A stretch of 60,788 nucleotides of DNA, from contig JAKAUM010000012.1 of assembly GCA_021827685.1 (NCBI GenBank), forward strand, positions 1-60,788. Reading direction: 5' to 3'. The translations under genes and the position numbers were made by a program. The notes below the pieces were generated by a model. That model saw only the letters and a program-made list of their open reading frames with translations. It searched no databases and was not told where the DNA came from. Numbering within the stretch: position 1 is the stretch's first letter; every line of letters starts with the position of its first letter. This document shows positions 1-56,628 of the stretch, piece after piece. The stretch comes from a bacterium. GTDB taxonomy: Bacteria; Patescibacteriota; Minisyncoccia; UBA6257; 2-01-FULL-56-20.

Positions 1-153
1 CTTGATATCTCGCTCCTTAAGGAACGGGATAAGCGTTTCCTTTATGAATTCTACCGATGCTCTCGGCGCATAATGCTCGCCACCCTCGGAGGCAAAGTCA
101 TTTTGGAGATCGACGGCGAGGAACTGGATTTCCATGCGATGATTGTATCGCAT
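1..153 (-). CDS. isochorismatase/nicotinamidase-like cysteine hydrolase, N-terminal fragment (gene continues past window start)
   Basis: Not in the ORF track (<60 aa). Minus-strand translation from the ATG at 153 gives MRYNHRMEIQFLAVDLQNDFASEGGEHYAPRASVEFIKETLIPFLKERDIK. The VDxQNDF strand-1 motif is typical of the isochorismatase family. The frame is open to position 1. Confidence 0.45.
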   Translation of the reverse strand, partial: MRYNHRMEIQFLAVDLQNDFASEGGEHYAPRASVEFIKETLIPFLKERDIK

Positions 154-394
154 TTTTGTGCTCCCGTCATACCGGGTGCAAGGCGCATGTGTTCACTTTT
201 TGAAAGTTCGACAAGGTTGTCAAACTTTTTTATCCATGTTTATTTTCTGAACACCCTCATGCGGCAAGAGAACAGCTCCGACTTACATCGGAGCTGCCGC
301 ATCATGTTCGCTCGTTGAACAATGTTCAGATTGCGAACCGTTATCTTCTCGCCCACTGGCACGCTCCGGTTCGAATTGAATTTTAGGGCTCTAA

Positions 395-997
395 CTAAAA
401 ATCGCTTTTTAAAATCTCTCTTGCCTCCCTGAGCGCCTTGCCGCGATGACTGACTGAGTTCTTTTCCTCAACGGTCATCTCCGCGTTGGTTTTCCCCAGC
501 TCTTCGTTGTAGAAAATAGGATCATAGCCAAAACCATTCGCACCCCGCGGCTCACGGATAATTCTGCCGCGATAGATGCCTTCGCACGTACGGGTCTTGT
601 CGGTCGCAGGATCATAAATGGCAATGACGCAATGGAATTGAGCGCCGAGTTTATCGTCGGGGAAGTTTTTCAACTCACCCAGCAGTTTTCGGTAGCGGTC
701 TTCGTCGGTGCCGGGCTCATACCGCGCAGAATAGATGCCAGGCCTGCCGTTAAGTGCATCCACTTCAAGCCCTGAGTCATCAGCAAGAGTCAGCAATCCC
801 GTCTTTTTCCCTACTGTCATTGCCTTGATTATCGCGTTCCCCTCAAATGTCATAGCCGGTTCCTCCACCTCGTATTTCGGCGGCAGGGATGGGATATCGT
901 TCAAGTTCAGAAAGTCGAACGCCGCCCCCTGAAGCTCGGCGGTTATCTCGGGGAATTTACCTTTACTGTGGGTGACGATAAGAAGCTGTCGGCTCAT
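395..997 (-). CDS. rdgB: non-canonical purine NTP pyrophosphatase (RdgB/HAM1 family)
   Basis: 200 aa with an ATG start. Family motifs: THSKGKFPE, ADDSGLEVDALNGRPGIYSARY, GFGYDPIF, SHRGKAL. Confidence 0.9.
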   Translation of the reverse strand: MSRQLLIVTHSKGKFPEITAELQGAAFDFLNLNDIPSLPPKYEVEEPAMTFEGNAIIKAMTVGKKTGLLTLADDSGLEVDALNGRPGIYSARYEPGTDEDRYRKLLGELKNFPDDKLGAQFHCVIAIYDPATDKTRTCEGIYRGRIIREPRGANGFGYDPIFYNEELGKTNAEMTVEEKNSVSHRGKALREAREILKSDF

Positions 998-1063
998 AGT
1001 ATTGATTATACAGGCTCGGACCGTATGGCGTTGCTCAAATAAATTTCAACAGGCCCCCTTTGG

Positions 1064-1807
1064 TCATGCTGTTTCCTTAGCCAGTTTGTCCCACAGCGAG
1101 TCGAACACCAACTTCTGCGTCTCGGCAAGGCCGGTGTCTTCGATAACAACGCTGTGCGGACGACCCTGCGAGAGGGATATAATCGCGACTTTCTTTCCGT
1201 AGATGATAACGTAAGCGGGGGCGCCACGCTTGGCCGTGATCCAGCGCCGCTCATCAAGGCCGCGGATTTCGCCGCCGGCACCGATCGCGATAACTTTCGC
1301 CTTGATTTTCTCCTTGATGCGCCGCTCGGAGAAGCTCGCAAAGTTGTAATAGAGATATTCCCTGATGTTTGCGGCGGAATATACCCGATATTGTTTGTCC
1401 GTTTCTGCCGCCATCGTTTTGAGCACGTCCTCCAATATCAATTTCGTTCCCGTATGCCCCTCGTGGATTTTAATGATCGGCTGCTCGTGCTTGGTCTCAT
1501 AGAACGTCTGTAGCTCAGGAAGGGATTTCGTCAATTCTTTTCGCATGCTCACCAACTTCTGCCGCTCTTCCTTAAAGAGCGTTTTAAGAATAGCGGGATC
1601 TTCCGCGACGAACTGTTGCCTCTGTTTTTTCTGCGAATGGCTTATCAGTCCGCGGTCGCCGAGCACCTTCAACGCCTCATACACGGTTCCTCGGTTGATG
1701 CCCGTGTCCCCCGCTATCTGCCGGATGGATGCGCCGCCGTTCTTCAGCAGATGCGTATAGACCTTTCCCTCGTTCTCCGAAAACCCGAGTTTTTCAAAGA
1801 TTTTCAT
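1064..1807 (-). CDS. TrmB-family HTH transcriptional regulator
   Basis: 247 aa with an ATG start. The N-terminal winged HTH (LGFSENEGKVYTHLLKNGGASIRQIAGDTGINRGTVYEALKVLGDRGLI) is typical of TrmB/sugar-sensing regulators. Confidence 0.75.
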   Translation of the reverse strand: MKIFEKLGFSENEGKVYTHLLKNGGASIRQIAGDTGINRGTVYEALKVLGDRGLISHSQKKQRQQFVAEDPAILKTLFKEERQKLVSMRKELTKSLPELQTFYETKHEQPIIKIHEGHTGTKLILEDVLKTMAAETDKQYRVYSAANIREYLYYNFASFSERRIKEKIKAKVIAIGAGGEIRGLDERRWITAKRGAPAYVIIYGKKVAIISLSQGRPHSVVIEDTGLAETQKLVFDSLWDKLAKETA

Positions 1808-1864
1808 TTTGATTCTGGTTTATTTTTTCGACTATACGGTGAAGCTTACCGCATCCCGACACAC

Positions 1865-1897
1865 TGTCAAATACTTTATTGACAATATATTTGACAA
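1865..1897 (-). promoter_or_regulatory. TTGACA-type repeat cluster upstream of the TrmB-like gene (putative promoter/operator)
   Basis: Inverted repeat tgtcaa(1865-1870)/ttgaca(1879-1884) plus a direct ttgacaa copy (1891-1897). It lies 58-90 nt upstream of the start at 1807. Confidence 0.3.
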
Positions 1898-1910
1898 CGG
1901 CGGTATGCGT

Positions 1911-1938
1911 AAAAAAAGGCCCCGATGCACTCGGGGCC
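1911..1938 (-). terminator. rho-independent terminator after 1963..2523
   Basis: 8-bp GC stem ggccccga(1918-1925)/tcggggcc(1931-1938). On the minus strand it is followed by T7 (plus-strand a7 at 1911-1917). Confidence 0.75.
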
Positions 1939-1962
1939 CGTAGCGAATGAAATCCTCCAATT

Positions 1963-2523
1963 CTACGCCGGAATGGGCCGGGCTTGCGACAGCGACTGGT
2001 CGATGAGCGATATAAAACACCAAGCATCCTCTTTCCGTTCTCGCAGATATTCGGGGTTCAGGAAGAACCGGGAAAACGTATCGCGGAAAACCAGGTAGGC
2101 CGCTCCCTCATATTGGGCTGCCATGCCGGTTGCGTAGCGTTTCGCTTCGTTGCGAATCCGCTCGGAGATACACCACATGAGCTTTGCGACGACGGCGAAA
2201 AACTCTTTCTGGAGATAGTAGTCGGGCGAAGCCATGATCGATTGCCGGTCGAAGCGAACCCAGAGGATTGCTTCCTTGTCGTCGTATTCCGGACAAACCA
2301 CCTGGATGTACTTCCACTCCGATCTCTTCCAATCCGGCTGTTTGTTCTGCTCATCGCAGAAAGATTTGAGTTGCGGGATGCGGTTGAACGGTTTGGCGGC
2401 AATCGTAACTTTGAGCTCGGGAATAATCGCCCGCCAGTGGGATGTAATCATCTCGTAAGACTTGGTGATGAGAGCCGCGACTTCTTGGTCGGCCTCGGGA
2501 TTCGTTACGGTCATAGTTGGCAT
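1963..2523 (-). CDS. hypothetical protein
   Basis: 186 aa with an ATG start, its own terminator and coding-like composition. I recognise no family. Confidence 0.55.
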   Translation of the reverse strand: MPTMTVTNPEADQEVAALITKSYEMITSHWRAIIPELKVTIAAKPFNRIPQLKSFCDEQNKQPDWKRSEWKYIQVVCPEYDDKEAILWVRFDRQSIMASPDYYLQKEFFAVVAKLMWCISERIRNEAKRYATGMAAQYEGAAYLVFRDTFSRFFLNPEYLRERKEDAWCFISLIDQSLSQARPIPA

Positions 2524-2670
2524 CAGTCACTCTCCTTGTTGAATTTTCAATGCCGGTTCGAGGCACCGTATTCACTATGGCCGGGTACGCGCCATCTCTC
2601 AATAACCTGATTGGCAAATATTGTGACAATATCAAGCTTCCTTACGGACGTATGGAAGCTTGATATTTCC

Positions 2671-2710
2671 CAAAAGAAAACCCTCGCAGCTGCCGGAGCA
2701 GATGCGAGGG
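2671..2710 (-). terminator. rho-independent terminator after 2743..3399
   Basis: Stem ccctcgca(2681-2688)/tgcgaggg(2703-2710). On the minus strand it is followed by TTTTCTTTTG. Confidence 0.75.
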
Positions 2711-2742
2711 TCAAGGGGTCAGACAAGAAGAGTGTCTGGTGG

Positions 2743-3399
2743 TCAACGAGAATTGCGAGAGAAGACCTGATCGCCACCGCGCCACGTGTTCGGGTACGTG
2801 ACGGAGCGCGCGCGCACGCGCCAGCCGCAGTCGTCAGCGGCCCAGTACACGCCCACGGCACGGAGCACGCCTTTGGCGTCACGAACATAGAAGATGTTCG
2901 CATAGCCGTTCGTAAGGAGCGCTCCCTTCTCGCCGTTCGGCTGGGCCGACATCAGGGCGAACACTTCGGCGAGCGTCGTTTCCGCTTTCTCTTCGCCGCC
3001 GAGTTCGGCGATGATCGGGCCGTCCACGGACGAGCGCGAGAGCGTGCCGTATTTCAGGGTTGATCCCTCGAACGGCTGCTCTGTCTTGTCCATGAACCAG
3101 CTCGTGAATTCATCCCAAATGTAGGCGATCTTCACGGCCGCGTTCCACTTGGTGTTCACGACAAACTTCTCGCGGGCGATGAAAACGCCCTTGGTTGGGG
3201 CGATCGCCACGGTGCCAATCGGTTTGAGTAATAGTATCCGGGCGATCGCCGCTCCGCCGCGGATGACCGCAAGAACGTCGGCGAAGAAGCCGCCCTTTGT
3301 CATTGCCTTCACCTCGGCATGCGTGGCTCCCGCGCGAGCCAAGGCAAACTCAACTTCCTGAATCTCTCCGGCACTCCCGAAGGTAAACTTGTCGCTCAT
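2743..3399 (-). CDS. hypothetical protein; C-terminal domain resembles the scaffold of the DGR target at 13735..14415
   Basis: 218 aa with an ATG start. The C-terminus NGYANIFYVRDAKGVLRAVGVYWAADDCGWRVRARSVTYPNTW parallels NGYTYFWGTIFRGANSSLYVGYLFRDGDRWRWDCRWLGYDW of the target. Shared pattern: NGY..F....G.L..VG..W...W. Confidence 0.6.
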   Translation of the reverse strand: MSDKFTFGSAGEIQEVEFALARAGATHAEVKAMTKGGFFADVLAVIRGGAAIARILLLKPIGTVAIAPTKGVFIAREKFVVNTKWNAAVKIAYIWDEFTSWFMDKTEQPFEGSTLKYGTLSRSSVDGPIIAELGGEEKAETTLAEVFALMSAQPNGEKGALLTNGYANIFYVRDAKGVLRAVGVYWAADDCGWRVRARSVTYPNTWRGGDQVFSRNSR

Positions 3400-3601
3400 G
3401 ACTGGTTCCTTTTCCGACTCGTTTCCCTTAGGAAACTTGTCTTCTGTAAAGTCATGGAATTGCTCCCATGCTGACCGTATCTTATGCCCTAATTCCTTAA
3501 TTCGTCAAGCGCGCGTAAATATTAATCTCGCGCGGCCTAAGGAAGCATTGGCCACGAACCATTTAACAGACAAAGGCGAAAGTTCCACCTGATTCGTTTC
3601 A

Positions 3602-3638
3602 AGAAAATGCGCCCGTATGGATTGCTCCAAACGGGCGC
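3602..3638 (-). terminator. rho-independent terminator after 3662..4123
   Basis: Stem gcgcccgt(3609-3616)/acgggcgc(3631-3638). On the minus strand it is followed by ATTTTCTTG. Confidence 0.65.
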
Positions 3639-3661
3639 TAGTTCGATGATCAACGCGGTGG

Positions 3662-4123
3662 TCATACCGCGCAGAGCAGCTTGGGCAATTCGACGCGGAG
3701 CTTGGCTATCGCATCCTCGTGCGAATCAAATGTAATAATTTTCACGACGGAGGGATTTCCCCGAAGCAGCCGCGATATCTTGCGAGCTTCGAGCTTTCTT
3801 TGCTCGCAAAGAATTATCACGGGGATGCCACTCCGGTTTGCCATCTCCACCTCGATGCCGCCACCCCAGGAAGGAGCTTCGGCGACAACGACGAGGAGCG
3901 ACGTGCGTTCGCATACCTGCTCACGCTCGGCCGCATCCACCTCGGGAGCGGTGTAGTGCCCGTGCTTTACTGGGTCATAATGTTCGTGCGGCACGAACGC
4001 CCGCACTCCGGTTTCGGCCTCAAACAGATCCGCGATTGCGACATAAAATGCCTTGATCGCGGCCTGTTCTTCTGGCGTCAGTTCGGTCAGTGGGCCGCAT
4101 ACATATGCGGAGTTTCCATTCAT
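3662..4123 (-). CDS. nucleoside 2-deoxyribosyltransferase-like (Rossmann-like) protein
   Basis: The ORF track extends to 4195. I place the start at the internal ATG at 4123 because a GGAGG lies 6 nt upstream. Motifs: N-terminal YVCGPL and C-terminal LLVVVAEAPSWGGGIEVEMANRSGIPVIIL, the PSxGxxxExG pattern of the NDT-like superfamily. Confidence 0.5.
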   Translation of the reverse strand: MNGNSAYVCGPLTELTPEEQAAIKAFYVAIADLFEAETGVRAFVPHEHYDPVKHGHYTAPEVDAAEREQVCERTSLLVVVAEAPSWGGGIEVEMANRSGIPVIILCEQRKLEARKISRLLRGNPSVVKIITFDSHEDAIAKLRVELPKLLCAV

Positions 4124-4445
4124 CCAACACCTCCGATTCATTGGCATTGATGCTGCTTGGCTGAATAGATTTAAACAGAAAGAGCATGTGGTCAAGGAAG
4201 CATAAATCGATCGCCTTTAACAACCACTATTCGATTATCGTGATGAGTCCCAGCAACAGCTATTTTAAAGACGCGATAGGGAGGATTACCGCTTCGCCCG
4301 CCGGAACACTCCGGTCTGTGGCGGACTTTGGGACGCTGTTTTGCGCCCGTATTCCATGCATCGATTTTTATCGCGCATGAATCGCGCAGAAAATCGCGCA
4401 GTGGTTCTGACCGGCTCGTAGGGCACACAGCGGACCTTAGGATAA

Positions 4446-4787
4446 CTATTTCACTTTTCGGGTCAACTGTAAGGTTTTCTTGATAAATTCGTTATGTTCT
4501 TCCGAATATTTCTCCCGGTCTTCTGGATATTTTTTCGCCGGCTCCTTCTTCGGGCTTGAGCATGCCTTCGTGTGCGCTGGATGAGCGTTCAGAGGTTTTC
4601 CATGTTCGCCATGAACGGGTCTTCCCGCTATCGGGAAAATAAAGCTCCCTGCCAGCGATGACTTGCGCCACCCATACACCTTTCGGAGTATGACGGTCCC
4701 CGATGCTCTGACGAGGGGCTTTATACCGGGAACAGAATATTGCGCCATGCCAGCGAGTTGCCTTGCTAGTTTAGGCGTCTTATTCAC
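4446..4787 (-). CDS. hypothetical basic protein
   Basis: 113 aa with a GTG start and a Lys-rich C-terminus. No recognisable domain, so the coding status is uncertain. Confidence 0.35.
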   Translation of the reverse strand: MNKTPKLARQLAGMAQYSVPGIKPLVRASGTVILRKVYGWRKSSLAGSFIFPIAGRPVHGEHGKPLNAHPAHTKACSSPKKEPAKKYPEDREKYSEEHNEFIKKTLQLTRKVK

Positions 4788-4810
4788 TTGTTATATTAAT
4801 TTTATGACGA

Positions 4811-4835
4811 GAAAAGCGCGCCTGTCTAGCGCGCT
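4811..4835 (-). terminator. rho-independent terminator closing the AAA/vWA/paralog gene string
   Basis: Stem agcgcgc(4815-4821)/gcgcgct(4829-4835). On the minus strand it is followed by TTTTCTCGTC. It lies 58 nt after the stop at 4893. Confidence 0.65.
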
Positions 4836-4892
4836 CTGATTTCGAATTCACATATTTTATATAAAAATTTTCGGAACCAAATTCCAAAGTAT

Positions 4893-5774
4893 CTATTCAC
4901 GAGAGAAAAGGACCTGAGGGCGGAACCCCAAGCCGGCGCTCCGCCCGTCGGGATCATCCCAGCGGACGATCGAGAGACCACCGTCCCCCGAGCTGCCACC
5001 ATCGAGGCGCCCCTGGCCCTTCATATAAGAATCTTCGAACCACTCCCATGTGTTTGCTCCGCCCCACTTGGGATAATATACGTTTCCCATGTAGTTCCAT
5101 TCAATCGCACGCGGAAGCCGCAGCGATTCGGGCGGGACATCCAACGCCTCCGCAATGGCTTTCTTCACCTCCGGCTTATTCAACTCGTCCCATGAAATGT
5201 TATAGCGGGAATCCTTAACTTTGAAATCGGTGATGACTTTCTTTTTTCTCAAATCTTCCAGCGTCTCGGCCAGTATATCATCGGCGTATTTTTGCTTGCC
5301 GTCCTGGTATTGCGGCTTCTCGCGGGTATCGACAAGAATCCAAGCGGCGGGAAGCTTGAGAGTTTCCTTTGGAAGATTGCCATTCTTCACTTCATCAAAA
5401 AATTCGATGCCCCATTTTTTATCCGGAGTGTATCGCGTGCCCGGCTTTTTCTTCCACCCGGGCAGATCGCGCCCTTCGTCAAGTTCTTCGTCCGGCAGGT
5501 AATGAAGTTCAAGCCCCATCTCTTTCCATTTCTCGTAGCGCTCGGGCGTAATTTCTTCCGGGAGTTCCGGAACCTCAATGTCGTATCCGAAAAAATTGCG
5601 GAGTGATTCTGCTTCCCGATCGAGGAGCTCGCGGAACTCCATCGTTTCCGCACGCATTCTACCGCGCTCTTTTTCCGCTTCGCCTAAAACCCTCTCCACC
5701 TTCTTTTGAACAGAGGTTTTATACTGGTCGGGGTTATATCCCTCGTATATTTTGTAACCGGGGAAGCGCTCCAT
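4893..5774 (-). CDS. variable-tail paralog P1: cytoplasmic protein with a C-terminal CLec/FGE-like putative DGR variable region
   Basis: 293 aa with an ATG start. It shares the N-terminus MERFPGYKIYE..YNPDQYKTSVQKKVE and the C-terminal frame PRAIEWNY.GN..P.WG....EWFEDS ... LGFRPQV.F.RE with P2 and P3. No signal peptide or TM segment. Confidence 0.85.
   Translation of the reverse strand: MERFPGYKIYEGYNPDQYKTSVQKKVERVLGEAEKERGRMRAETMEFRELLDREAESLRNFFGYDIEVPELPEEITPERYEKWKEMGLELHYLPDEELDEGRDLPGWKKKPGTRYTPDKKWGIEFFDEVKNGNLPKETLKLPAAWILVDTREKPQYQDGKQKYADDILAETLEDLRKKKVITDFKVKDSRYNISWDELNKPEVKKAIAEALDVPPESLRLPRAIEWNYMGNVYYPKWGGANTWEWFEDSYMKGQGRLDGGSSGDGGLSIVRWDDPDGRSAGLGFRPQVLFSRE
4932..5027 (-). 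repeat. hypervariable block (putative DGR VR) of P1
   Basis: Encodes YMKGQGRLDGGSSGDGGLSIVRWDDPDGRSAG. Aligns codon-for-codon with 5888..5983 and 9098..9193; see findings. Confidence 0.7.
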
Positions 5775-5848
5775 ATAAGTTATTTATTTTTGATTATCAT
5801 AAATTTTTCGAACCCGCCAAAGAAACAAAAGACCGATTACCAAAGCAC

Positions 5849-6700
5849 CTATTCACGAGAGAAAACAACCTGAGGGCGGAACCCCAAGTCGCCGAGCCGC
5901 GCGCCGGGATCACCCCAGCCGACGCTCGAGAGACCACCGATCCCCGAGTAGCCAACAGCGAGGCGCCTCTGGCCCTCCCCTAAAGAATCCTCAAACCACT
6001 CCCACGTATCGGTGTCGCCCCATGAAGGGTGGTAGGCGTTGCCGAGATAATTCCACTCGATGGCGCGGGGAAGGCGGAGATATTTTTCTGGAACATCAAG
6101 GGCTTCCGCGATCGCTTTCTTTACTTCCGGTTTGTGCAGTTCATCCCATGAAATTCTGAAACGGGAGCCTTCGACTTCAAAAGCTCCGATGACTTTTTTC
6201 TTTCTCAGTTCTTCAAGCGTTTTAGCAAGTACGTCGTCTTGGTACATTTGCTCGGCGTGTTGATATTTCGGTTTTTCTCTTGTATCCGCGAGGATCCACG
6301 CACCGGGTAAAGTCGCCGCATCGGCATCAACTTTTTTATCTTTAATATTCTCATAAAACAAATCGCGGGGTTTCTTCTTCCAGCCGGGCAGTTCGCGGTC
6401 TTTTTTCATTTCCTCCGCCGGCAAGTAATGGAGTTCGAAACCCATCTCTTTCCATTTCTCGTAGCGCTCCATCGTAATCTCTGCGGGGAGCGGCGGCACT
6501 TCAACGTCGTACCCGAAAAAGTTGCGGAGCGATTCTGCTTCGCGACCCCGAAGCTCGCGGAACTCCATGGTTTCGGGACCCATTCTGCCGCGCTCTTTTT
6601 GCGCTTCGCCTAAAACTCTCTCCACCTTCTTTTGGACGGAAGTCTTATACTGGTCGGGGTTATACTCCTCGTAGATTTTGTAACCGGGGAAGCGCTCCAT
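5849..6700 (-). CDS. variable-tail paralog P2
   Basis: 283 aa with an ATG start placed 2 nt after the vWA stop. Near-identical to P3 outside the tail; for example, a roughly 95-nt stretch around 6037-6133 appears identical to 9247-9343. Confidence 0.85.
   Translation of the reverse strand: MERFPGYKIYEEYNPDQYKTSVQKKVERVLGEAQKERGRMGPETMEFRELRGREAESLRNFFGYDVEVPPLPAEITMERYEKWKEMGFELHYLPAEEMKKDRELPGWKKKPRDLFYENIKDKKVDADAATLPGAWILADTREKPKYQHAEQMYQDDVLAKTLEELRKKKVIGAFEVEGSRFRISWDELHKPEVKKAIAEALDVPEKYLRLPRAIEWNYLGNAYHPSWGDTDTWEWFEDSLGEGQRRLAVGYSGIGGLSSVGWGDPGARLGDLGFRPQVVFSRE
5888..5983 (-). repeat. hypervariable block (putative DGR VR) of P2
   Basis: Encodes LGEGQRRLAVGYSGIGGLSSVGWGDPGARLGD. Confidence 0.7.
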
Positions 6701-6702
6701 GG

Positions 6703-8730
6703 TTATAGATCTCTTGTGTATTGAAGAATAACTTTTTGGACGGCTTGCGGCAATTTATTGATGTCCACGATGACTTCCGCATCCGGTTTATACGTTTCCT
6801 GAACAGCGGCCCCGGATTCCGTCATGCCCAAGCCTAAAATAATCACGCCCTTCTCGCGCAGCGCTTTGAGGTTCTTCTGGACGCGTTCGGCGTTTTCGCT
6901 GTCGCCGTCCGAGAGTACTACGATCACTTTGCGCCGTATCTTTTCCCTAAGCTGCCGCTCATCTTCCGGTGTCAGGGATTTTAACGCTTCTTCGAGCGAG
7001 AGATAATCCGGCGTTCCGCCACCCGCCTTGTGCATTTTCTTCCAAATCGCGATGCGGTCTTTTTCCGAAAGATCCGGCGAGAGTTTTTTGAGTTCCACAT
7101 CGCCGAAATCGCCGAACGCTCTCGTTTCGGTTCTCACGCCTAAACCCACAGGCATGCCGCTCTCGTATTCTGCTTCCTCGATTTCTTTCTGAAAGTCCGC
7201 GAGCGATTCCAAGAAAAGAAGTTTGCTTTTTCTATCCATTTCGAGCTTCCCGCCCTCGTTCATGGAGCCGGAAAGGTCATTGATCAGAGTCATATCAAGC
7301 GCGCCATATCCCTCTTCTTCCCGCTGCTTGCGCTCCACATCTCGAAATGCTCTCGGCTCACCGCCGCTTTTGGACTCGATATACGCTTCCGCGACCGTTC
7401 CACCCTCTATTTCCTCTCCTTCTCGCTGGAGCTGCGGGCGAACTTTCCAGCGCCGCTGTAATCTCTTCGTCACTACTTGCTTGAACACTTCGCGAAGTTC
7501 GGCAATGAGCGGGGCAATTTCTTTATATTCGTTTCGATATCCAATCACGTCTTCGGGGCTTACGTCGTGCTCCCTTGCCCATTGCTCAAGGATGCTCTGA
7601 TCGAGAGTGGGCACTCCGCCGCGCTCTTTCACAATCGTCTCGATCGCTTTCATGATTTTTTCTTCGTCTTTGGCCGACAAGGGCTCGGGGTGCGTCGCCT
7701 CATATGTTTTATATTGCTCCTTGAATCGCTTCTCGGCCTCGCGCCGGGCGCCGCCATCGCCGCGCTTCTCTTTTTTCGTGTCTCCTCCGCCTTCTTCTCC
7801 CTTTCCATTGCCGCCCTCGGCCTCTTTTTTCTTTTTAAACTTCTCCCACCACTTTTTGTCTTTTTTTTCGCCGCCCTGCTCGCCCTGCCCACCCTGCCCT
7901 CCTTCCTGTTCGCGACTTTCGTTCGACTGGCCTTGACCCTGATCCCCTTTGCCTTTTTGTTTCTGCGTTTCGCGCTCCATGTCTTTGCGGTAAAGTTCCA
8001 TATAAACCGGCTCGACAACCTGGCGCATCAACTTGAACCGGTCGCGCGGCTCAATTGTGGGCGTCGTTACAAGATCTAAAATATCTGTTCTGTCGTCGCC
8101 GAAATTGCGAAGCTTATCGAGGGCTTCCTGTGCTTCGGGACCCACCGTAACTTGTTCATCCGGAACCATCATCTGGCGGATAAAGCCGTACACGAACTGA
8201 ACGTGGGCAGACAATTCCTGTTCTTGGCCAGTTTGCGGATCCTTGAGGCGCCGGTAATCGGTCGCCGGAAACATTTTCTCTTTATATAAAGTGCGGCGCG
8301 TTTCCTCCAGAAATGGAAGTTCAGCGACAATGCGCCGATTCCCAAGCACGTCTTCAAAGATATTGTGGAGAATATGGAGCTGCGGTTTTTGCTGGCTATA
8401 TCGTTTCGCTTCCTTAAGTACAAATTCCGGATCTCTCAAAAGTTCCCCGTAGTGAGCCATAAGCTCGTGCGTCGTCGCAAAGAGCGTTTCCTTAAGATCG
8501 TAACCGCGCTCAATGAAAAAATTGGGATCGTAAACAAGTCGCCGGTTCTCGAAGTCGAACGCCCAACCGTTGCTCCCCCTTTCGAGCGTAATGTCCCCGC
8601 GCATCCCGTATGCGCCGAGGATCTCGCCTTCCTTGTCGAAAAACGCTTCAACTTCGGACGGCTGCGACTCCTTCTTTTCAATGGGATTCTCGTCTCCCTC
8701 GGGCGGTTTTTCAGGAGAGAATTTAGTCAA
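6703..8730 (-). CDS. vWA-domain protein with an N-terminal HExxH (metallopeptidase-like) region and a central K/E/G-rich low-complexity linker
   Basis: 675 aa. HELMAH motif near residue 90. C-terminal vWA domain with the MIDAS motif DLSGSM. The track start at 8730 is a TTG overlapping the stop of the RT remnant, so the true start is uncertain. Confidence 0.8.
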   Translation of the reverse strand: MTKFSPEKPPEGDENPIEKKESQPSEVEAFFDKEGEILGAYGMRGDITLERGSNGWAFDFENRRLVYDPNFFIERGYDLKETLFATTHELMAHYGELLRDPEFVLKEAKRYSQQKPQLHILHNIFEDVLGNRRIVAELPFLEETRRTLYKEKMFPATDYRRLKDPQTGQEQELSAHVQFVYGFIRQMMVPDEQVTVGPEAQEALDKLRNFGDDRTDILDLVTTPTIEPRDRFKLMRQVVEPVYMELYRKDMERETQKQKGKGDQGQGQSNESREQEGGQGGQGEQGGEKKDKKWWEKFKKKKEAEGGNGKGEEGGGDTKKEKRGDGGARREAEKRFKEQYKTYEATHPEPLSAKDEEKIMKAIETIVKERGGVPTLDQSILEQWAREHDVSPEDVIGYRNEYKEIAPLIAELREVFKQVVTKRLQRRWKVRPQLQREGEEIEGGTVAEAYIESKSGGEPRAFRDVERKQREEEGYGALDMTLINDLSGSMNEGGKLEMDRKSKLLFLESLADFQKEIEEAEYESGMPVGLGVRTETRAFGDFGDVELKKLSPDLSEKDRIAIWKKMHKAGGGTPDYLSLEEALKSLTPEDERQLREKIRRKVIVVLSDGDSENAERVQKNLKALREKGVIILGLGMTESGAAVQETYKPDAEVIVDINKLPQAVQKVILQYTRDL

Positions 8731-9053
8731 GTTATTGCGTTTATTATACCGCTTATAGGCCGAAAAATCAAATGATTTTCTTTACCATTTCCCATCGCAC
8801 GGTGCGCGATTTTAAGATCGGCGTTGAGAAATTCGCCGACTTTCCCTATATAGCTCGACAGGAGTTCTCGATCTCTGTCTAAAATTACGAAGTCGTCGCA
8901 GTAGCGCATGTAATACTTCGCGCGCAGAGTCATTTTTATGAATTGATCGGGTTCGTTCAGATAGATATTCGCGAAGAGCTGGCTCGTGAGGTTGCCGAGC
9001 GGCAGTCCCTGTATGTCAACATCCCTTTTGTGAGACAAGAGCCAAAATCCCAA
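8727..9053 (-). pseudogene. internal remnant of a DGR-type reverse transcriptase (motifs 4-5 only)
   Basis: Translation QGLPLGNLTSQLFANIYLNEPDQFIKMTLRAKYYMRYCDDFVILDRDRELL. It carries the LGxxxSQ motif-4 signature of DGR RTs and a YxDD catalytic box (YCDD). N-terminal fingers motifs 1-3 and the thumb are absent. The apparent start is a TTG 5 nt after the P3 stop. Confidence 0.75.
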
Positions 9054-9058
9054 AGCAC

Positions 9059-9910
9059 CTATTCACGAGGGAAAACAACCTGAGGGCGGAACCCCAAGGC
9101 GTCGTTCCGTCCGACGGGATTACCCCAGTAGACGTTCGAGAGACCACCGCTCCCCGAGTGGCCACCATCAAGGCGCCTCCGGCCATTCATGTAAGAATCC
9201 TCGAACCATTCCAATGAATTCGTCTCGCCCCATGAAGGGTGGTGGGCGTTGCCGAGATAATTCCACTCGATGGCGCGGGGAAGGCGGAGATATTTTTCTG
9301 GAACATCAAGGGCTTCCGCGATCGCTTTCTTTACTTCCGGTTCGTGCAGTTCATCCCATGCGATCCCGAAGCGGGAGCATTTGACTTCAAAAGCTCCGAT
9401 GGCTTTTTTCTTTCTCAATTCTTCAAGCGTTTTAGCAAGTACGTCCTCTTTATACGCCTGCTTGCCGTCTTCGTAATGCGGTTTGTCCCTGCCGTCTACA
9501 AGTATCCATGCCGCAGGCAGCGTTGCTGCATCAGCGGCGACTTCTTTTGCTTCCAATATTTCATAAAACCAGTCCCGCGGCTTCTTCTTCCAGCCGGGCA
9601 GTTCGCGGTCTTTTTTCATTTCTTCCGCCGGCAGGTAGTGGAGTTCGAGCCCCATTTCTTTCCATTTCTCGTAGCGTTCTGCCGTAATTTCTTCCGGGAG
9701 CTCCGGAATCTCAATGTCGTATCCGAAAAAGTTGCGGAGTGATTCTGCTTCCCGATCTATCAGCTCCCGGAATTCCAATAATTCCGGATTGATGAGCCCT
9801 TTTTCTTTCTGCGCTTCCCCAAGCGCCTTTTCTACCTTCTTTTGAACAGAGGTCTTGTATTGGTCGGGGTTGTACTCTTCGTATATTTTGTAACCGGGGA
9901 AGCGCTCCAT
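9059..9910 (-). CDS. variable-tail paralog P3
   Basis: 283 aa with an ATG start 12 nt after the AAA ATPase stop. Same family as P1 and P2. Confidence 0.85.
   Translation of the reverse strand: MERFPGYKIYEEYNPDQYKTSVQKKVEKALGEAQKEKGLINPELLEFRELIDREAESLRNFFGYDIEIPELPEEITAERYEKWKEMGLELHYLPAEEMKKDRELPGWKKKPRDWFYEILEAKEVAADAATLPAAWILVDGRDKPHYEDGKQAYKEDVLAKTLEELRKKKAIGAFEVKCSRFGIAWDELHEPEVKKAIAEALDVPEKYLRLPRAIEWNYLGNAHHPSWGETNSLEWFEDSYMNGRRRLDGGHSGSGGLSNVYWGNPVGRNDALGFRPQVVFPRE
9098..9193 (-). repeat. hypervariable block (putative DGR VR) of P3
   Basis: Encodes YMNGRRRLDGGHSGSGGLSNVYWGNPVGRNDA. This copy is the richest in AAC/AAT codons. Confidence 0.7.
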
Positions 9911-9922
9911 AACATAATGGGA

Positions 9923-11599
9923 CTATTCTTTGCCCTGCCAGGCGCGCAGCGTCTTCGCCGCAAGTCCGGGTACTTTGAAGTCTTCGGGCTTAGTGTCCTT
10001 GAAGAATTTATTGGCCATAAAGACGCGGATCATATTTTCCCTGTCTTTGCTCGCCCGGCCGCTGATTTCGGCTTTATGGAAAAACTCGCGAAGCACGACG
10101 TCCCCGAGCTGCTCTTTAAATCCGCCGGCTTTCCACGCTTTCATGATTTCGATCTGGTCCTTCAGGGTAACCACAAGCTCCTTGAATGCCAGGCGGTCGC
10201 TTTTCGCCAAACTTTCTTCCGCGCCTTCGCGCACGGAAAGCGTGAAGTCTTCCTGTATCTTGCGGCAGGCGGCGGCAAATCGCTTCAGTTCATCCACCTT
10301 CCCGGCCGCCCCTGTTTCGCTCCACTGGATATTGCCGTGCCGGTCGGCGAGAACGGCGGTCAAAATTCGGAGCGTTTCCGGAGCGATATATTGCCCTTCT
10401 TTATTTTTCTTCCCGAGATCCAAATAGTGAATTTCGCGGGCTCCCGCGCCTCCGATGAAGCGGCGGAGCGTCGCTACATCGAGTTCATAGCGCTGCTTGT
10501 ACCGCTCCGATTTCAAGTTAGCCGTTGCCATAATCGGTGCGCGGATCGGGATTTCCTCGCCGGTTACGGGATGCTTCCAAACATCGCCGACCCGCTTTTG
10601 CAAAAGGTCGTGCAAAATTCCCGCGAACTCGTGGGGCATAAGATTCACTTCATCTAAAATCACGGGGCGCCCTTCTTTTTGCGCTTTCACGAATTCGGAA
10701 TAGTCAAAAACCGTCTCACCGCCTTTGAGTCCTCGGGTGCCCAAGATCTGCGATTCTTTGATCTGTTCCTGTATGGAAATGAGCGCCGGCGCTTTTCTCA
10801 AATATCTCTCCGAAATATATTTCGCAAGCTGCGATTTCCCCGAGCCGGTTTCGCCCTGGAAAAGAACCGGGGCGCCCTGAAGCAGATCCGGCAGTATGGC
10901 GCGGATGAGTTCCGTGCGCGATTCCGTTTCGGCAAAACTGTATTGCTCCAAATCGCGCTGCATCTTGCGGATGCCGCGCCGCTCGAGCATATCGATTGTG
11001 TCCGGATCAAGCTCGAAGTTTTTTATCGTTTCCTGAAGTTCGCCCTTGCGGGTTGCGAGGTCGGCCATTTTCTTCCGCTCGATGGGCCCCGGCGCCCGCC
11101 CCACTTTCTCGTAAACCATCTGAAGCTTTTTCTCTGCCGAGGTTATCGCGTCAAGTTCTTTTTCGGCATGTTCATACTGCAAAGATTTCGTAAGCGTTTG
11201 TTTCTTTTTCTCGAATTGCTCCTTATAAGTTCGTAAAACTTCCGGATTGCTCGCCAACTCTTTGATGCGGGCATCGTATTCCGTAAGCGTCGTTTCTTGA
11301 AATTCCGCGAGTTCCGGATCGAGTGAAAGCGCCTCGAGATGCGCCGCGACTTCGTTTTCTCCTTTGGCCTTCAAATCTGCGAGCTCCGTTTTGCTTTTCA
11401 CACCCCATGCTTCGTTCACGTGCTTCGCGACTTCGGCGCGGGAAGCCGAAAGCTCCGCGAGCTCATTTACGCGAGATTCCAATTCCTCGCGTGAAAGTGG
11501 TTTCTCTTTTTTAGATGGCTTTTCCACGCTCTCCCGCTCAAGAATCACTTCGGGGGTGGTTTTTACTTCGGGAATATGCGGCAACTTTTCTGGAGACAT
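9923..11599 (-). CDS. MoxR/AAA_5-like P-loop ATPase with a long coiled-coil N-terminal region
   Basis: Walker A is GETGSGKS and Walker B is VILDEVN, followed by an ATANL sensor-like segment. The track ORF starts at a TTG (11662); the first ATG is at 11599 (MSPEKLPH...). Confidence 0.8.
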   Translation of the reverse strand: MSPEKLPHIPEVKTTPEVILERESVEKPSKKEKPLSREELESRVNELAELSASRAEVAKHVNEAWGVKSKTELADLKAKGENEVAAHLEALSLDPELAEFQETTLTEYDARIKELASNPEVLRTYKEQFEKKKQTLTKSLQYEHAEKELDAITSAEKKLQMVYEKVGRAPGPIERKKMADLATRKGELQETIKNFELDPDTIDMLERRGIRKMQRDLEQYSFAETESRTELIRAILPDLLQGAPVLFQGETGSGKSQLAKYISERYLRKAPALISIQEQIKESQILGTRGLKGGETVFDYSEFVKAQKEGRPVILDEVNLMPHEFAGILHDLLQKRVGDVWKHPVTGEEIPIRAPIMATANLKSERYKQRYELDVATLRRFIGGAGAREIHYLDLGKKNKEGQYIAPETLRILTAVLADRHGNIQWSETGAAGKVDELKRFAAACRKIQEDFTLSVREGAEESLAKSDRLAFKELVVTLKDQIEIMKAWKAGGFKEQLGDVVLREFFHKAEISGRASKDRENMIRVFMANKFFKDTKPEDFKVPGLAAKTLRAWQGKE

Positions 11600-11753
11600 A
11601 TTATTGAAATTATAATAGCAAAACAAGCATTTCTCAAAATTCCGTCGAGCTATGTATTCCAATAATACTACAGATGCTCTAATAAGTCAACCTTTTCGCA
11701 CTGGTTCCCCACCAGGGCGGCCTTATCCGACTTATAGCTCCCTCGCGCCCTTC

Positions 11754-12047
11754 TTATCGCATCCCTTTGAATACGATGCCAGTTGTTCTTTGCAAAAGTT
11801 CCAATGTCGCCCGCACGGATGGGTTGCTGGTGTGCCGTAATTGGACTCTATCGCCGTAGGTTTTCCCGAGCGGCGTCAGAAATTCGTCGCCCCATGAAGG
11901 TGAAAAGGTCAAAACGTCCTCGAAGTCGATCTCGAGATTCTCATCCTCTTTGATGTCGCGCAATGTCGGCTGGAATGCCGCGAACGATTCGCGTCCGGCT
12001 TGGCGGGAAATGAGGGTCGTCCCGAATTTTTTGAGTTCGATGGTCAT
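11754..12047 (-). CDS. STAS-like small protein (DUF4325-like)
   Basis: 97 aa with an ATG start. The pattern ISRQAGRE...LEIDFEDVLTFSPSWGDEFL matches the DUF4325/STAS-like architecture. The gene starts 5 nt after the GHKL gene stop. Confidence 0.55.
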   Translation of the reverse strand: MTIELKKFGTTLISRQAGRESFAAFQPTLRDIKEDENLEIDFEDVLTFSPSWGDEFLTPLGKTYGDRVQLRHTSNPSVRATLELLQRTTGIVFKGMR

Positions 12048-12052
12048 GGATT

Positions 12053-12775
12053 TTAATATGATATGAGGACAAGGCAGCCGCGTAGGTTCTCTTTGCTTTT
12101 CGCCACAATGAAATCGGTATCCCTGCCTTTCATGGTAAGTGCTGCGTCGCCGCTTTGGAAGGAGATGTTAATGTTATTTTCAGAAACGACCTCCTTCACG
12201 TACTTCAGTCCGTTGCCCCGCCCCTCGGGAGCGCGGCCGGAGATGACTTCCGTAAACGCGACCTTCAGGGCATCTTCGTAGTTATTCAGCGCCGGTCTCA
12301 CCCGCTTCAATGTTTCGAGGACGCCGATACCTCTATCGGCCAACACAATCTGCTTTTTCACAAGATCGTACGCGAAGAATATCCCCGGCGTATCCGGCCA
12401 CAATCCGAGATTATGGTCGAATGAGTTGTTCCCTATTTCCCCCGCGACTGACACGAGCAGCGAGAAGAGATCAGGTACCGTGCCGCCGCGAATCATGTCG
12501 TCCTGCATCCTGATGAGCCGCGCCTGGAAAACGGCGCTCGTCTGACAATAGAAACCCTGCGGGAATTCCGCATTGCCCGCGATCCAATCGTGGGCAAGCC
12601 TGAAAAGGTTCTGCGAGAAAATCTCGACATCCTTTCTCCGGTAATAACGGTCTCCTCCTTCCCGTTTCCGGATGGCAGGAAAACGTCCGCTCTCATCCCA
12701 ACGGCGCAACGTCATTATGGAGACGCCCATCAGCTCGGCGGCTTCTCCTATTGGAACCAGATCTTTGTCGTCCAT
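12053..12775 (-). CDS. MerR-type HTH fused to a GHKL (HATPase_c-like) ATPase/kinase domain
   Basis: MerR HTH: IGEAAELMGVSIMTLRRWDESGRFPAIRKREGGDRYYRRKDV. GHKL boxes: N-box EIGNNSFDHN, G1 DRGIG, G2 GRGNGLKY. The track start at 12826 is a TTG; the first ATG is at 12775. Confidence 0.7.
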   Translation of the reverse strand: MDDKDLVPIGEAAELMGVSIMTLRRWDESGRFPAIRKREGGDRYYRRKDVEIFSQNLFRLAHDWIAGNAEFPQGFYCQTSAVFQARLIRMQDDMIRGGTVPDLFSLLVSVAGEIGNNSFDHNLGLWPDTPGIFFAYDLVKKQIVLADRGIGVLETLKRVRPALNNYEDALKVAFTEVISGRAPEGRGNGLKYVKEVVSENNINISFQSGDAALTMKGRDTDFIVAKSKENLRGCLVLISY

Positions 12776-12816
12776 AGCTTTGTTAGCTTCAAGAGCTATT
12801 TTATCATACTTTTTAT

Positions 12817-12884
12817 ATCTATACAAACTTCCCTATATCTATACATCTACCATAAATCTCTATATTTTCCTCTTAATCTATACA
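12817..12884 (-). promoter_or_regulatory. periodic direct repeats upstream of the MerR-GHKL gene (putative operator array)
   Basis: Plus-strand atctataca at 12817, 12837 and 12876, plus a degenerate atctctata at 12856. This gives a period of about 20 nt. The minus-strand motif is TGTATAGAT. Confidence 0.4.
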
Positions 12885-13271
12885 TTGCTTTCCTCCAAAA
12901 TCAGGGCGCCACCCCCCCCTACCCCTACCTACCCTAAATATCCCCATTTTCTCTGATTTCCACTGCCTTTCCGGCGTCTGGGGGCGGACATGTCCGGTTT
13001 TGCGCGAGCCGATCGCCCACTGGCATGCATACGCGGTACACGCTCGGCGTGAAAATCGACAGCCTGCTCGTCGAAACCATCGCACAGATATAAGAAGCGA
13101 ATCGTGCGAGTAAGGGCACGAAGCTGCCGCATCTTGAGCGCGCCGCTCATTATCTCGACCTCGCGAAACTCTTCCTCGAGATGCTCTAGGAGATCAAAGC
13201 GCTGGATAGCGGGAAATATATCTCCCTTTCCGAAAAACTCTTTGAAGCGGGCAGGTAGGCCAGCGGTTGGG

Positions 13272-13385
13272 CGCGGCCGGCTCGTTGTCGTTCCAGTCGT
13301 TGTCGAGCCAGTTATAGTTCCAGTTCCACCTGTTGCCGTTCCAGTACGGGTACTCGACATACAGGTTACCGTTCGCGTTGCGGAA
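13272..13385 (-). repeat. DGR template repeat (TR), 114 nt
   Basis: The minus-strand sequence would read FRNANGNLYVEYPYWNGNRWNWNYNWLDNDWNDNEPAA and contains 11 AAC codons. It is 85/114 identical to 13750..13863. Similarity ends at the ttccgc (5') and ccggccgcg (3') boundaries. Confidence 0.8.
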
Positions 13386-13639
13386 TCGTGCGCCGTGCCA
13401 TCCGCGCCACCATCCGTTGATTACTCTCGGGATTGAATCGTGTTCGGGATGCCCCCAGCACCGCGCACCAAGTATCTTCGTTTTTATTTCGGTTGAAAGA
13501 ACGGCGCTGGCAGAAAGCGTACCCGCTGCCATTCCGCGTTCAGTGATACCGGAATGCGGCCGCCGAAACCGCAGCCTCGGACTTGTTTTGAGCCTTATTC
13601 CGAAATCGTTTTTCACGTCTTATTTTTGTAGATAATAGA

Positions 13640-13680
13640 TAAAAGAAGGCCCGTGCAGAACCGAAGTTCGCGCACGGGCC
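13640..13680 (-). terminator. hairpin/rho-independent terminator downstream of the VR
   Basis: Stem ggcccgtgc(13648-13656)/gcacgggcc(13672-13680). On the minus strand it is followed by TTCTTTTAT. It lies about 70 nt 3' of the VR end. Confidence 0.7.
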
Positions 13681-13734
13681 GAAGAGCAAAGGGGCAGAGG
13701 ATCAGAAAGGTCCAGCTGCCCCATATCCAAAGGA

Positions 13735-14415
13735 CTAACTTGCGAGCGACGCGGCCGGGCTCTGAACGCGCCAGTCGTAGCCGAGCCAGCGGCAGTCCCA
13801 GCGCCACCTGTCGCCGTCCCGGAACAGGTACCCGACATACAGGCTGCTGTTCGCGCCGCGGAAGATGGTTCCCCAGAAATAGGTGTAACCATTCTTCCAC
13901 TCATTAGGAATGAGCTTCGGGTTGGCGAGCAGGGCATCCATGATGCAGGCGTTCAGCACCTGCACGTCCCTCAGCTCCTTGCAGAGCTTGTGGCCCTGGA
14001 TGTAGTTGCCATCCCGCTGCTTTTTTGAGAGGTAACGGACGACTTCCTTGCCGTTCGCATAGAGCTTGCCGTCGTCACGCTTTACGAGGGTGATCGCGCC
14101 CATCGGGCGATGCTCAGTTCCGTCGCCCGTCAGGTAGAGGCCGGATGGGATTTTGGGATTTGCGTCGCAGTCCACGATGATCGACATCGGAAGCGGGGCG
14201 GGCTGCGGTTTCCCGATAACGGGAACCACTGCGGCTGGCGTCTCGAACTTACGTCCTTCGACCACCTGCTGCAGTTCATCCATCACCCAGTCGTATTCGA
14301 GCGTGCCTTCGTTGATCCGGCGCTTCAATTCGTCGGTGCGACGAGTCATCTTTCCGAGCTGCTCATCGTCCATCTTGGTTCCGTCGAGGACAGCGCTTGC
14401 CGTCGTATTCGTCAT
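13735..14415 (-). CDS. DGR target protein (cytoplasmic, no signal peptide) with the VR at its C-terminus
   Basis: 226 aa with an ATG start preceded by AAGGAG. The C-terminal 38 codons form the VR. Confidence 0.85.
   Translation of the reverse strand: MTNTTASAVLDGTKMDDEQLGKMTRRTDELKRRINEGTLEYDWVMDELQQVVEGRKFETPAAVVPVIGKPQPAPLPMSIIVDCDANPKIPSGLYLTGDGTEHRPMGAITLVKRDDGKLYANGKEVVRYLSKKQRDGNYIQGHKLCKELRDVQVLNACIMDALLANPKLIPNEWKNGYTYFWGTIFRGANSSLYVGYLFRDGDRWRWDCRWLGYDWRVQSPAASLAS
13750..13863 (-). repeat. DGR variable repeat (VR), 114 nt
   Basis: Encodes FRGANSSLYVGYLFRDGDRWRWDCRWLGYDWRVQSPAA. There are 29 mismatches to the TR, and 20 of them fall at TR adenines. Confidence 0.8.
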
Positions 14416-14545
14416 GACAGTTTCTCCTTTTTCTGCCGCATAGTTGCAGCTTTGAACGTACCATCACATATGCGCTCAAAGCTGCAACGAAGCGGAAATC
14501 CCTTGGAATATATGGCTTTTCAAAGAGCATTGAGTTACGATTTAT

Positions 14546-14573
14546 ATTATATCATAACTATAATCCTTGTCGA
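14546..14573 (-). promoter_or_regulatory. sigma70-like promoter of the DGR target gene
   Basis: Minus strand: TCGACA, a 16-nt spacer, then TATAAT (-10 at 14546-14551, -35 at 14568-14573). Confidence 0.5.
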
Positions 14574-14665
14574 GACAGCCGTTTCGAGCCTTTTTAGTAT
14601 AGAATTTGCACTCTTGCCACCGCTATCTTCCAGGTTCGTAGGCGACCTCCGCGCAAAACGCTCGT

Positions 14666-15211
14666 CTAGCGCTTCGCCCACTGCGGCGCGCGGCGCGCTT
14701 TTTTAAGTCCGTATTTTTTGCGCTCCACCATCCGGGAATCGCGGGTGAGGTAGCCCGTCGCCCGGAGGCGCGGCTTCCAATCCGGCGTATGCCGGACGAT
14801 CGCGCGGGAAATGCCGTGGCGGATGGCTCCGGCCTGGGCCGAAATGCCGCCGCCGCGGACAGTGACGGTCACGTCAAAATCCTTCAGAAGGTTCATCTCG
14901 CGGAGAGGCGCGACTGCCGCGGCGAGGAGGCGCGGGAGGAAGAAATAATGCTTCGGCTCTTTTCCGTTCACGAGCATCTTGCCGCTGCCCGCAAAAAGGC
15001 GGACGCGCGCGACCGCGGTCTTGCGGCGGCCGACCGCTTCCGTATAGCGGCCCTTGGGCGCGGGCGGCGCGGCGTGGGCGGCGTGGGCGGCGTGCGCAAC
15101 GTGCGGCGCGGCGTGGGCGCTCGAGGCGGCGCGGGTATCGCGCGCCTGGGCGCGGGCGCCATGCGCCGGTGCGGACTTCCCTGCTTTTTCCGTCATTTTG
15201 CGTTCGGCCAT
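14666..15211 (-). CDS. rpsI: 30S ribosomal protein S9 with a roughly 50-aa Ala/His-rich N-terminal extension
   Basis: C-terminal 130 aa: GRRKTAVARVRL...GGGISAQAGAIRHGISRAI...LTRDSRMVERKKYGLKKARRAPQWAKR. The start lies 1 nt after the rplM stop. Confidence 0.95.
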   Translation of the reverse strand: MAERKMTEKAGKSAPAHGARAQARDTRAASSAHAAPHVAHAAHAAHAAPPAPKGRYTEAVGRRKTAVARVRLFAGSGKMLVNGKEPKHYFFLPRLLAAAVAPLREMNLLKDFDVTVTVRGGGISAQAGAIRHGISRAIVRHTPDWKPRLRATGYLTRDSRMVERKKYGLKKARRAPQWAKR

Positions 15212-43664: not shown

Positions 43665-50432
<6,768 letters not shown>

Positions 50433-53407: not shown

Positions 53408-53520
53408 ATGTCGGCACATCCTACTTTCCCCGCAAGCGCGAGTATCATGGGATCGGGGCGCTTTCACTTCTCTGTTCGGAATGGGAAGAGGTGGGGCACG
53501 CCCAAATGAAGCACCGACGT
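53408..53520 (-). rRNA. rrf: 5S rRNA
   Basis: Minus strand: GUCGGUGC...CCCACCUCUUCCCAUUCCGAACAGAGAAGUGAAAGCGCC...GGAAAGUAGGAUGUGCCGACAU. This matches the conserved loop A/B/C and helix I pattern of 5S rRNA. Confidence 0.9.
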
Positions 53521-53697
53521 CAAAAGGTCGATTTGGAACGGCCGCTTCTGCGCGGTGAGCGCAGAAGCGGATAAGTCAGCATTGGGATGGTTGGCGGGAT
53601 TATTAGTACTCCTCGGCTTAAGCCCTTGCGGGCCTTACACCTGGAGCCTATCAACGTGGTAGTCTTCCACGAAATCACACACACCTAATCTTGGGGT

Positions 53698-53731
<34 letters not shown>

Positions 53732-53850
53732 CTTCCGTACATAGCTACCCGGCAATTCACCTGGTGGCAAAGCCGGTAGACCAGAGGTACGTTCAGCCCA
53801 GTCCTCTCGTACTAAGGCCAACTCCCCTCAAGTGTTAAACGCCTGCAGCA

Positions 53851-53891
<41 letters not shown>

Positions 53892-54525
53892 ACGTGCCAC
53901 TTTAATTGGCGAACAGCCAAACGCTTGGGAGCTTCTCCACCCCCGCGCTGTGGCGAGCCGACATCGAGGTGCCGAGCGAAGTCGTCGATAGGAACTCTCG
54001 GACTTCACCAGCCTGTTATCCCCGGAGTAGCTTTTATCCGGTGTCTCCGGCCTTCCTATAAAGAAGCCGTCGGGTCACTAACTTCCGCTTTCGCGCCTGC
54101 TCGGCTTGTAGGCCTCGCAGTCAAGCCGGCTTATGCGTTTGCACGTCCTGCCCGATTTCCATCCGGGCTAAGCCGACCTTAATAAACTCCTCCGTTACTC
54201 TTTTGGAGGAAAACGCCCCATTTAAACTGCCTACCAAGCACTGTCTCGGTTGGGTTTCCCCTCAGGGTCCCCAACCGGTGAGTCGCTAAAACTTTGAAGA
54301 TGGCTGTTTCATTGTCGGGTCCGCGCGAACCAAAATCCGCGCTTCAATCCCTCGCCACTACGCTACGCATCAAAGCTCTAGAAACAATACCAAGCTGCAG
54401 TAAAGCTTCCGGGGTCTTTTCGTCCCGCTGCAGGTATCCCGCGTCTTCACGGGAATCGCATTTTCACCGAGCTTGCCTCTGAGACAGTTCTCCAGTCGTT
54501 ACGCCTTTCGTGCGCTTCGGAACTT

Positions 54526-56591: not shown

Positions 56592-56628
<37 letters not shown>

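Follow-up and report, generated by a model that had tools for sequence, protein, structure and literature searches.

Probable remnant of a Patescibacteria-type DGR with its machinery destroyed and its target gene intact

[quoted passage not shown] A first-pass annotation had described the pair as the canonical signature of mutagenic retrohoming. A machine repeat search returned the same two segments (Table 1), aligned without gaps over 114 nt at 75% identity and a spacing of 478, and the counts made earlier by hand were reproduced exactly: 29 mismatches in total, falling on 20 of the 32 TR adenines and on 9 of the 82 non-A sites, with 10 of the 11 AAC codons of the TR altered in the VR. Machine realignment showed the mismatches to be enriched at TR adenines (p = 7e-8, Fisher/hypergeometric), and the translations quoted for both repeats were also confirmed. 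The A was on the TR copy at 20 of the mismatched sites and on the VR copy at only 2, so the direction of transfer, from TR to VR, is clear.

The limits of the pair required adjustment. The VR had been given as the last 38 codons of the gene; it does lie in the 3' end, but four further codons (SLAS) and the stop follow at 13749-13735. The boundaries had also been called sharp, but the 3' edge at CCGGCCGCG is not the native one: in every relative examined the identity between TR and VR extends about 10 nt beyond CCGGCCGCG, and the VR of the window can be aligned to the TRs of relatives over 124 nt, with homology reaching 13740. The TR of the window is truncated at this point and lacks the final 10 nt of the TR/VR homology.

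Table 1. Features of the degenerate locus and its surroundings, in positions of the window
Feature	Position	Strand	Basis and remarks
Target gene, 226 aa, ORF intact	13735..14415	-	ORF call; Patescibacteria-wide DGR target family with hypervariable C-terminus
VR	13750..13863	-	Repeat finder and alignment; homology to TRs of relatives continues to 13740; identical in L001, L002 and L003
TR relic, 32 adenines, 11 AAC codons, 3'-truncated	13272..13385	-	Orthologous to TRs of L004, L007, L087, L088, L089 and L118
Promoter-like site (TCGACA, 16-nt spacer, TG, TATAAT)	14546..14573	-	11/12 matches; upstream of target gene; consensus match only
Hairpin and T-run, probably intrinsic terminator of target gene	13641..13680	-	69 nt after VR; terminator-like site; RNAfold -26.3 kcal/mol
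Deletion scar	13238..13271	-	About 34 nt, against about 108 nt in relatives; about 74 nt lost
avd (bAvd-like) pseudogene, antisense to TR	13034..13276	+	Residues 36-116 of about 127; tblastn with Avd of relatives, 58% identity
Breakpoint	13028..13029		All homology to intact cassettes stops; about 110 nt upstream of the RT start codon of relatives
AAA_5 gene	9923..11662	-	Part of second decayed DGR cassette
VWA gene	6703..8730	-	Part of second decayed DGR cassette

The origin of the pair was established by comparison with relatives, the loci of which are denoted here by L numbers and the nearest named of which belong to Minisyncoccia and Paceibacterota. The family is arranged as target (with VR), TR, antisense avd and reverse transcriptase (RT) gene. 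In L004 a gene for a 72%-identical target is succeeded by a TR and then by a gene for an RVT_1 protein of 337 aa, and in orthologous loci in general, with targets 66-72% identical, the same TR recurs with unchanged spacing, an antisense bAvd gene and a full RT coming after it. From the target through the TR (14451-13272) the window is 77-81% identical to L004, L087, L089 and L118, and across the avd block 69-72%; these four loci continue past the TR into antisense avd and an RT of 330-337 aa, and their TR and VR differ at adenines only. The TR of the window is identical to that of L007 at 106 of 114 positions. The RTs beside the TRs of the family carry LGNLTSQ and Y[A/C]DD motifs, and the Avd proteins, of about 125 aa and encoded on the opposite strand between TR and RT, were intact and free of stops in 14 of 14 relatives examined (that of L007 matched Pfam PF22296, bAvd, at E = 8e-8, below the curated cut-off). 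Both this cassette architecture and the A bias are observed features of the family. Given the orthology to cassettes having all DGR parts, with differences almost only at adenines, the assignment of the pair as a DGR template and variable repeat by descent is secure.

A hairpin with a T-run was found about 24 nt 3' of the TR and is conserved in 43 relatives (e.g., L088:1018-1045); of its six consensus pairs, five show compensatory changes. It overlaps the avd stop codon, which lies on the opposite strand, and may act both as the terminator of avd and as the element that sets the 3' end of the TR RNA.

The protein encoded by the target gene matched no entry in Pfam or NCBIfam. A protein search yielded 81 homologues; species-representative genomes gave 243 and metagenomes at least 417, almost all carrying a Patescibacteria/CPR label, and the variation in the family alignment is concentrated in C-terminal columns, namely those that differ between the TR and VR of the window. 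An AF2 model of residues 70-226 reached a pLDDT of 94.7 and a pTM of 0.89. Assignment of the fold was attempted with two AF2 models and three Foldseek searches; the top matches in the PDB were nearly all C-type lectin domains, but every one of these was below threshold (E of at least 0.2, TM of at most 0.49), and the solved DGR variable proteins of the Mtd, TvpA and AvpA types were absent among the PDB matches. A structure search of BFVD gave no significant match, and a profile search of PDB sequences came back empty.

In the Bordetella and Legionella elements, a GC-rich hairpin near the end of the VR, with a stem of 7-10 bp and a GRNA loop, is required for homing. No hairpin of this type was found 4-34 bp from the VR in the window; the only one present lies 69 nt away. 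This is the GC hairpin with a U-tract that had been noted about 70 nt past the VR, and while its position was correct, its inclusion in the DGR signature was not upheld: at that distance, with a longer stem and a T-run, it is terminator-like and probably serves the target gene as its intrinsic terminator. Intact and with a promoter-like site and terminator of its own, the gene is probably still expressed with one fixed VR. The myDGR description places the GC-rich hairpin, with its GRNA tetraloop, 4-34 bp after the VR (PMC6602519), and according to Wu et al. such a hairpin occurs in only 34% of DGRs and is not strictly defining (PMC5758913).

To obtain a baseline for the mismatches, each related locus retrieved was examined for its VR, its RT and the TR that aligned best without gaps; 33 loci had distinct TRs and a near-full RT. 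Mismatches at adenines ranged from 10 to 24 in these relatives; non-A mismatches numbered 0 in 18 loci, 1 in 10, 2 in four and 3 in one, and the nine of the window are far outside this range. Several non-A differences are common in CPR DGRs, with up to 11 in one target (Wu et al., PMC5758913), which makes the within-family baseline the more telling comparison. When each difference was set against the 33 family TRs, the TR of the window proved to be the odd copy at positions 18, 38 and 72, the change at position 38 turning a conserved Leu codon into Pro, and the VR at positions 16 and 43. The earlier suggestion that the pair had drifted since the last homing event is supported, both copies having changed.

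Four of the non-A mismatches, at positions 99, 102, 103 and 105, fall in the last three variable codons, a clustering that had been pointed out correctly and ascribed to the expected difference between IMH and IMH*. This interpretation was rejected because the cluster lies 5' of the GC-rich block and the bases of TR and VR at these four positions agree across the 33 relatives. In the VR the three codons read GTT CAG AGC, which would be a pure A-mutagenised form of GAT CAG AAC in the L009 TR allele; the local TR reads GAC AAC GAG and resembles that of L081. Damage or replacement close to the deletion described below may have altered the 3' end of the TR, or the VR may last have been written from another TR allele. 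A total of 51 family TRs were screened as writers of the VR and none fitted, the minimum being six non-A mismatches. Realignment of the cluster by hand with indels yielded nothing more parsimonious.

We then consider what is left of the machinery. The search for an RT covered 60 kb of a 343-kb contig, using a six-frame scan for [YF]xDD and GxxxSQ and tblastn with the L004 RT, and the only hit in the window was a remnant at 8805-9008, which is treated below; beyond the breakpoint at 13029, past which neither an RT gene nor the 5' end of avd remains, tblastn with the L004 RT found nothing. The place of the RT is occupied by a MerR-type HTH gene with an uncharacterised C-terminal part (12053..12826, minus strand), next to which follows a DUF4325 (STAS-like) gene (11754..12047, minus strand). 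The remaining avd sequence lacks both gene ends, contains in-frame stops at 13091-13093, 13187-13189 and 13256-13258, and matches PF22296 at E = 1.6e-5, below the curated cut-off. At the deletion scar, the exact ends of which are ambiguous since alignments differ, the last 10 nt of the TR/VR homology, the conserved hairpin with its T-run and the 3' end of avd have been lost. An Rfam scan of the TR region returned no family for it and unrelated RNAs only. In the Bordetella phage element, synthesis of cDNA begins at the 3' end of the TR and needs the adjoining spacer RNA; by analogy, the deletion of about 74 nt would probably leave the TR non-functional even with an RT provided.

The exact target protein was recovered on three further contigs (L001, L002 and L003), each from different samples. 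The window is 100% identical to L002 over 4.8 kb and to L003 over 1.0 kb, and 99.94% identical to L001 over 10,651 nt, with six SNPs (14687, 13602, 13576, 6085, 5263 and 4969), all of them outside the VR and TR. The VR is identical in all four, which is what a frozen VR predicts; these are consensus assemblies, with which low-frequency VR variants within the populations may be compatible. The claim of canonical, working retrohoming was therefore not sustained, as the RT is absent, avd is a pseudogene, the 3' flank of the TR is deleted and the VR is invariant in four assemblies.

The locus is very probably the remnant of a Patescibacteria-type DGR, the machinery of which has been destroyed and the VR frozen with the target gene left intact. 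In the intact form, the TR RNA would be copied by the DGR reverse transcriptase together with the bAvd-like protein, with misreading at adenines, and the cDNA would overwrite about 124 nt at the 3' end of the target, thereby randomising some 15-20 codon positions of a compact C-terminal domain; we infer this mechanism of copying and overwriting from the Bordetella phage and Legionella paradigms. Decay would have involved removal, at the 13029 breakpoint, of the RT gene together with the 5' part of avd, the gain of three stop codons by the leftover avd and the deletion of about 74 nt adjoining the TR, with ordinary point mutations accumulating in both TR and VR after the last homing.

The alternative that holds up best is that the cassette is still active, with an RT (and Avd) elsewhere in the genome diversifying the VR in trans from this or another TR, which we consider distinctly improbable. 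Remote or trans use of DGR parts has been documented (PMC5758913, PMC10907252), and six relatives (L007, L031, L034, L047, L054 and L102) have a TR/VR pair and no RT within at least 1.6 kb of sequence after the TR; loss of the RT, or its supply in trans, seems to recur in the target family. These six pairs were counted in favour of activity in trans as clean and A-only, the numbers of non-A mismatches being 0-3 in five of them and 14 in L102. The fit of the GTT CAG AGC codons to the L009 allele, poor for the local TR, points the same way, and nine non-A mismatches alone are no proof of inactivity when CPR DGRs reach 11 (PMC5758913). However, the criterion of Dore et al. (2024) for use in trans is a perfect match of VR and TR at non-adenine sites (PMC10907252), and with mismatches at nine such sites not even trans use of the window TR is indicated. 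In addition, the failure of all 51 family TRs to fit the VR, a TR devoid of its 3' homology and of the conserved flanking hairpin, a dead local avd, and the identity of the VR in four assemblies all argue against continued diversification.

The RT remnant at 8805-9008 (minus strand) comprises 68 aa, with LGNLTSQ and YCDD motifs. Its identity is 81% to the RT of L167 and 59% to that of L004, and the RTs of close relatives are 81-88% identical to that of L004. Around the remnant are three paralogous genes on the minus strand (9059..9910, 5849..6700 and 4893..5774), which differ mainly at scattered codons of a C-terminal ...GFRPQVVF segment and have VR-like ends at 9077-9185, 5867-5975 and 4911-5019. 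Locus L167 contains an intact cassette made up of AAA_5, two targets, antisense bAvd, a TR (12057-12165), a 293-aa RT, VWA and a third target, in which the A and non-A mismatches between TR and VR are 14/1, 11/1 and 11/1. The window is colinear with this cassette from 11637 to 4884, but only a small part of the RT remains in it, and a second target, a TR and avd are missing. Together with the remnant, this match to L167 leads us to read the window as carrying two decayed DGRs side by side, not one. Just downstream of the third paralogous target, at 4657-4777 (minus strand), is a match to the LOOT RNA (Rfam RF03000) with 74.9 bits against a gathering threshold of 46.4.

That the remnant is instead the RT of the first element, displaced by inserted genes, so that there would be a single broken DGR, is very improbable. 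No other RT-like sequence occurs in the window, and the remnant shares the strand of the TR, from which it lies 4.3 kb downstream, but it is just 59% identical to the RT family that accompanies this TR and 81% identical to that of L167, the different cassette of which, with its AAA_5 and VWA genes, is the one colinear with the window; the remnant was thus rejected as the first element's own RT. Scarcely credible is the view that the 3' end of the gene was simply duplicated in part, with an adenine pattern due to composition or selection and no retroelement, for although a 140-aa ORF (13194..13616) contains the TR in frame and a weak protein-level resemblance is seen just 5' of both repeat copies, the asymmetry of A is directional (20 versus 2), the same TR stands beside a bAvd gene and an RT in dozens of relatives with A-only differences, and the avd remnant directly adjoins the TR.

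The two decayed elements lie in a part of the window that differs in composition, since positions 1-14689 have 52% GC and those from 14690 onward have 62%, the change falling at about 14689, within the 3' end of rpsI (14666..15211). The 10.6 kb that L001 has in common with the window (99.94% identity) takes in the last 24 nt of rpsI, but what lies upstream in L001 is a different context of 53% GC; the junction could mark a mobile island, or it could have arisen by rearrangement or in assembly. A broader scenario, which on present evidence we think unlikely, is that the 52%-GC block is a transferred island, set at the 3' end of rpsI in a Patescibacteria chromosome of 62% GC, and that the two different DGRs it brought both lost their machinery, so that four diversified binding-protein genes were locked into single variants. 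The better fit of the last three variable codons of the VR to the L009 allele than to the local TR is a hint that, before the element died, one TR had been exchanged for another or the VR had last been copied from a TR other than the local one. If so, the locus would document in nature how receptors diversified by a DGR come to be fixed once they have been transferred. Elsewhere in the window, a GC-rich tandem repeat with a 9-nt period (15052-15138) encodes part of a 60-residue N-terminal extension of ribosomal protein S9, the rpsI product; the 23S rRNA gene (53585-57177, minus strand) is interrupted by a group I intron (54535-55129), with the 5S rRNA gene at 53409-53518; and a single ORF of 2255 aa (43665..50432, minus strand) appears to be a fused rpoB-rpoC, the L005 counterpart of which has 2249 aa with Rpb2 and Rpb1.

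With respect to published thresholds, the pair, at 114 nt with 20 substitutions at TR adenines, is above the minimum of 60 bp and seven such substitutions (PMC6602519). Its A share of mismatches, 69%, falls short of the at least 75% of Roux (2021; PMC8144416), and its non-A share, 31%, exceeds the at most 30% allowed by myDGR, which also requires the RT that is missing here (PMC6602519); under neither scheme would the pair be scored as a DGR. DGRs are abundant in CPR bacteria and their targets are mostly unannotated (PMC5758913, PMC8144416). The window element is a degenerate member of this known group: it shares with CPR DGRs (PMC5758913; clade 2, PMC8144416) the host lineage, a single adjacent target without known domain, an AAC-rich TR and, in its relatives, a bAvd-like accessory gene, and it differs from them in the loss of the RT, the pseudogenised avd and the truncated TR. 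Degenerate DGR loci that keep the target with its VR, and sometimes the TR, with the machinery missing or pseudogenised, have been described in Thiohalocapsa PB-PSB1 (PMC10907252), in another phylum and with another target family.

The comparison with the mtd/avd/TR/brt system of Bordetella phage BPP-1 revealed both likeness and difference. Common to the two are the A-directed transfer from TR to VR, a GC-rich block ending the repeat, an Avd partner and a VR at the 3' end of a gene for a ligand-binding protein. In contrast to BPP-1, the family of the window has its avd in antisense orientation between TR and RT and a terminator-like hairpin after the TR; the window has no working RT, and the best C-type-lectin match of its target in Foldseek had an E of 0.2.

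An A-biased TR/VR pair such as this one records past mutagenic retrohoming and is no proof of a working DGR, and DGR calls should accordingly be made with caution, as the non-A sites, the RT, the accessory gene and the flank of the TR all need to be checked. The locus illustrates on a small scale how a DGR decays in a bacterium with a reduced genome, through deletion of the RT, pseudogenisation of avd, truncation of the TR and drift of both repeat copies. The widespread but unannotated Patescibacteria target family, together with the compact architecture of its cassettes and the hairpin adjoining the TR, may aid the annotation of CPR genomes.
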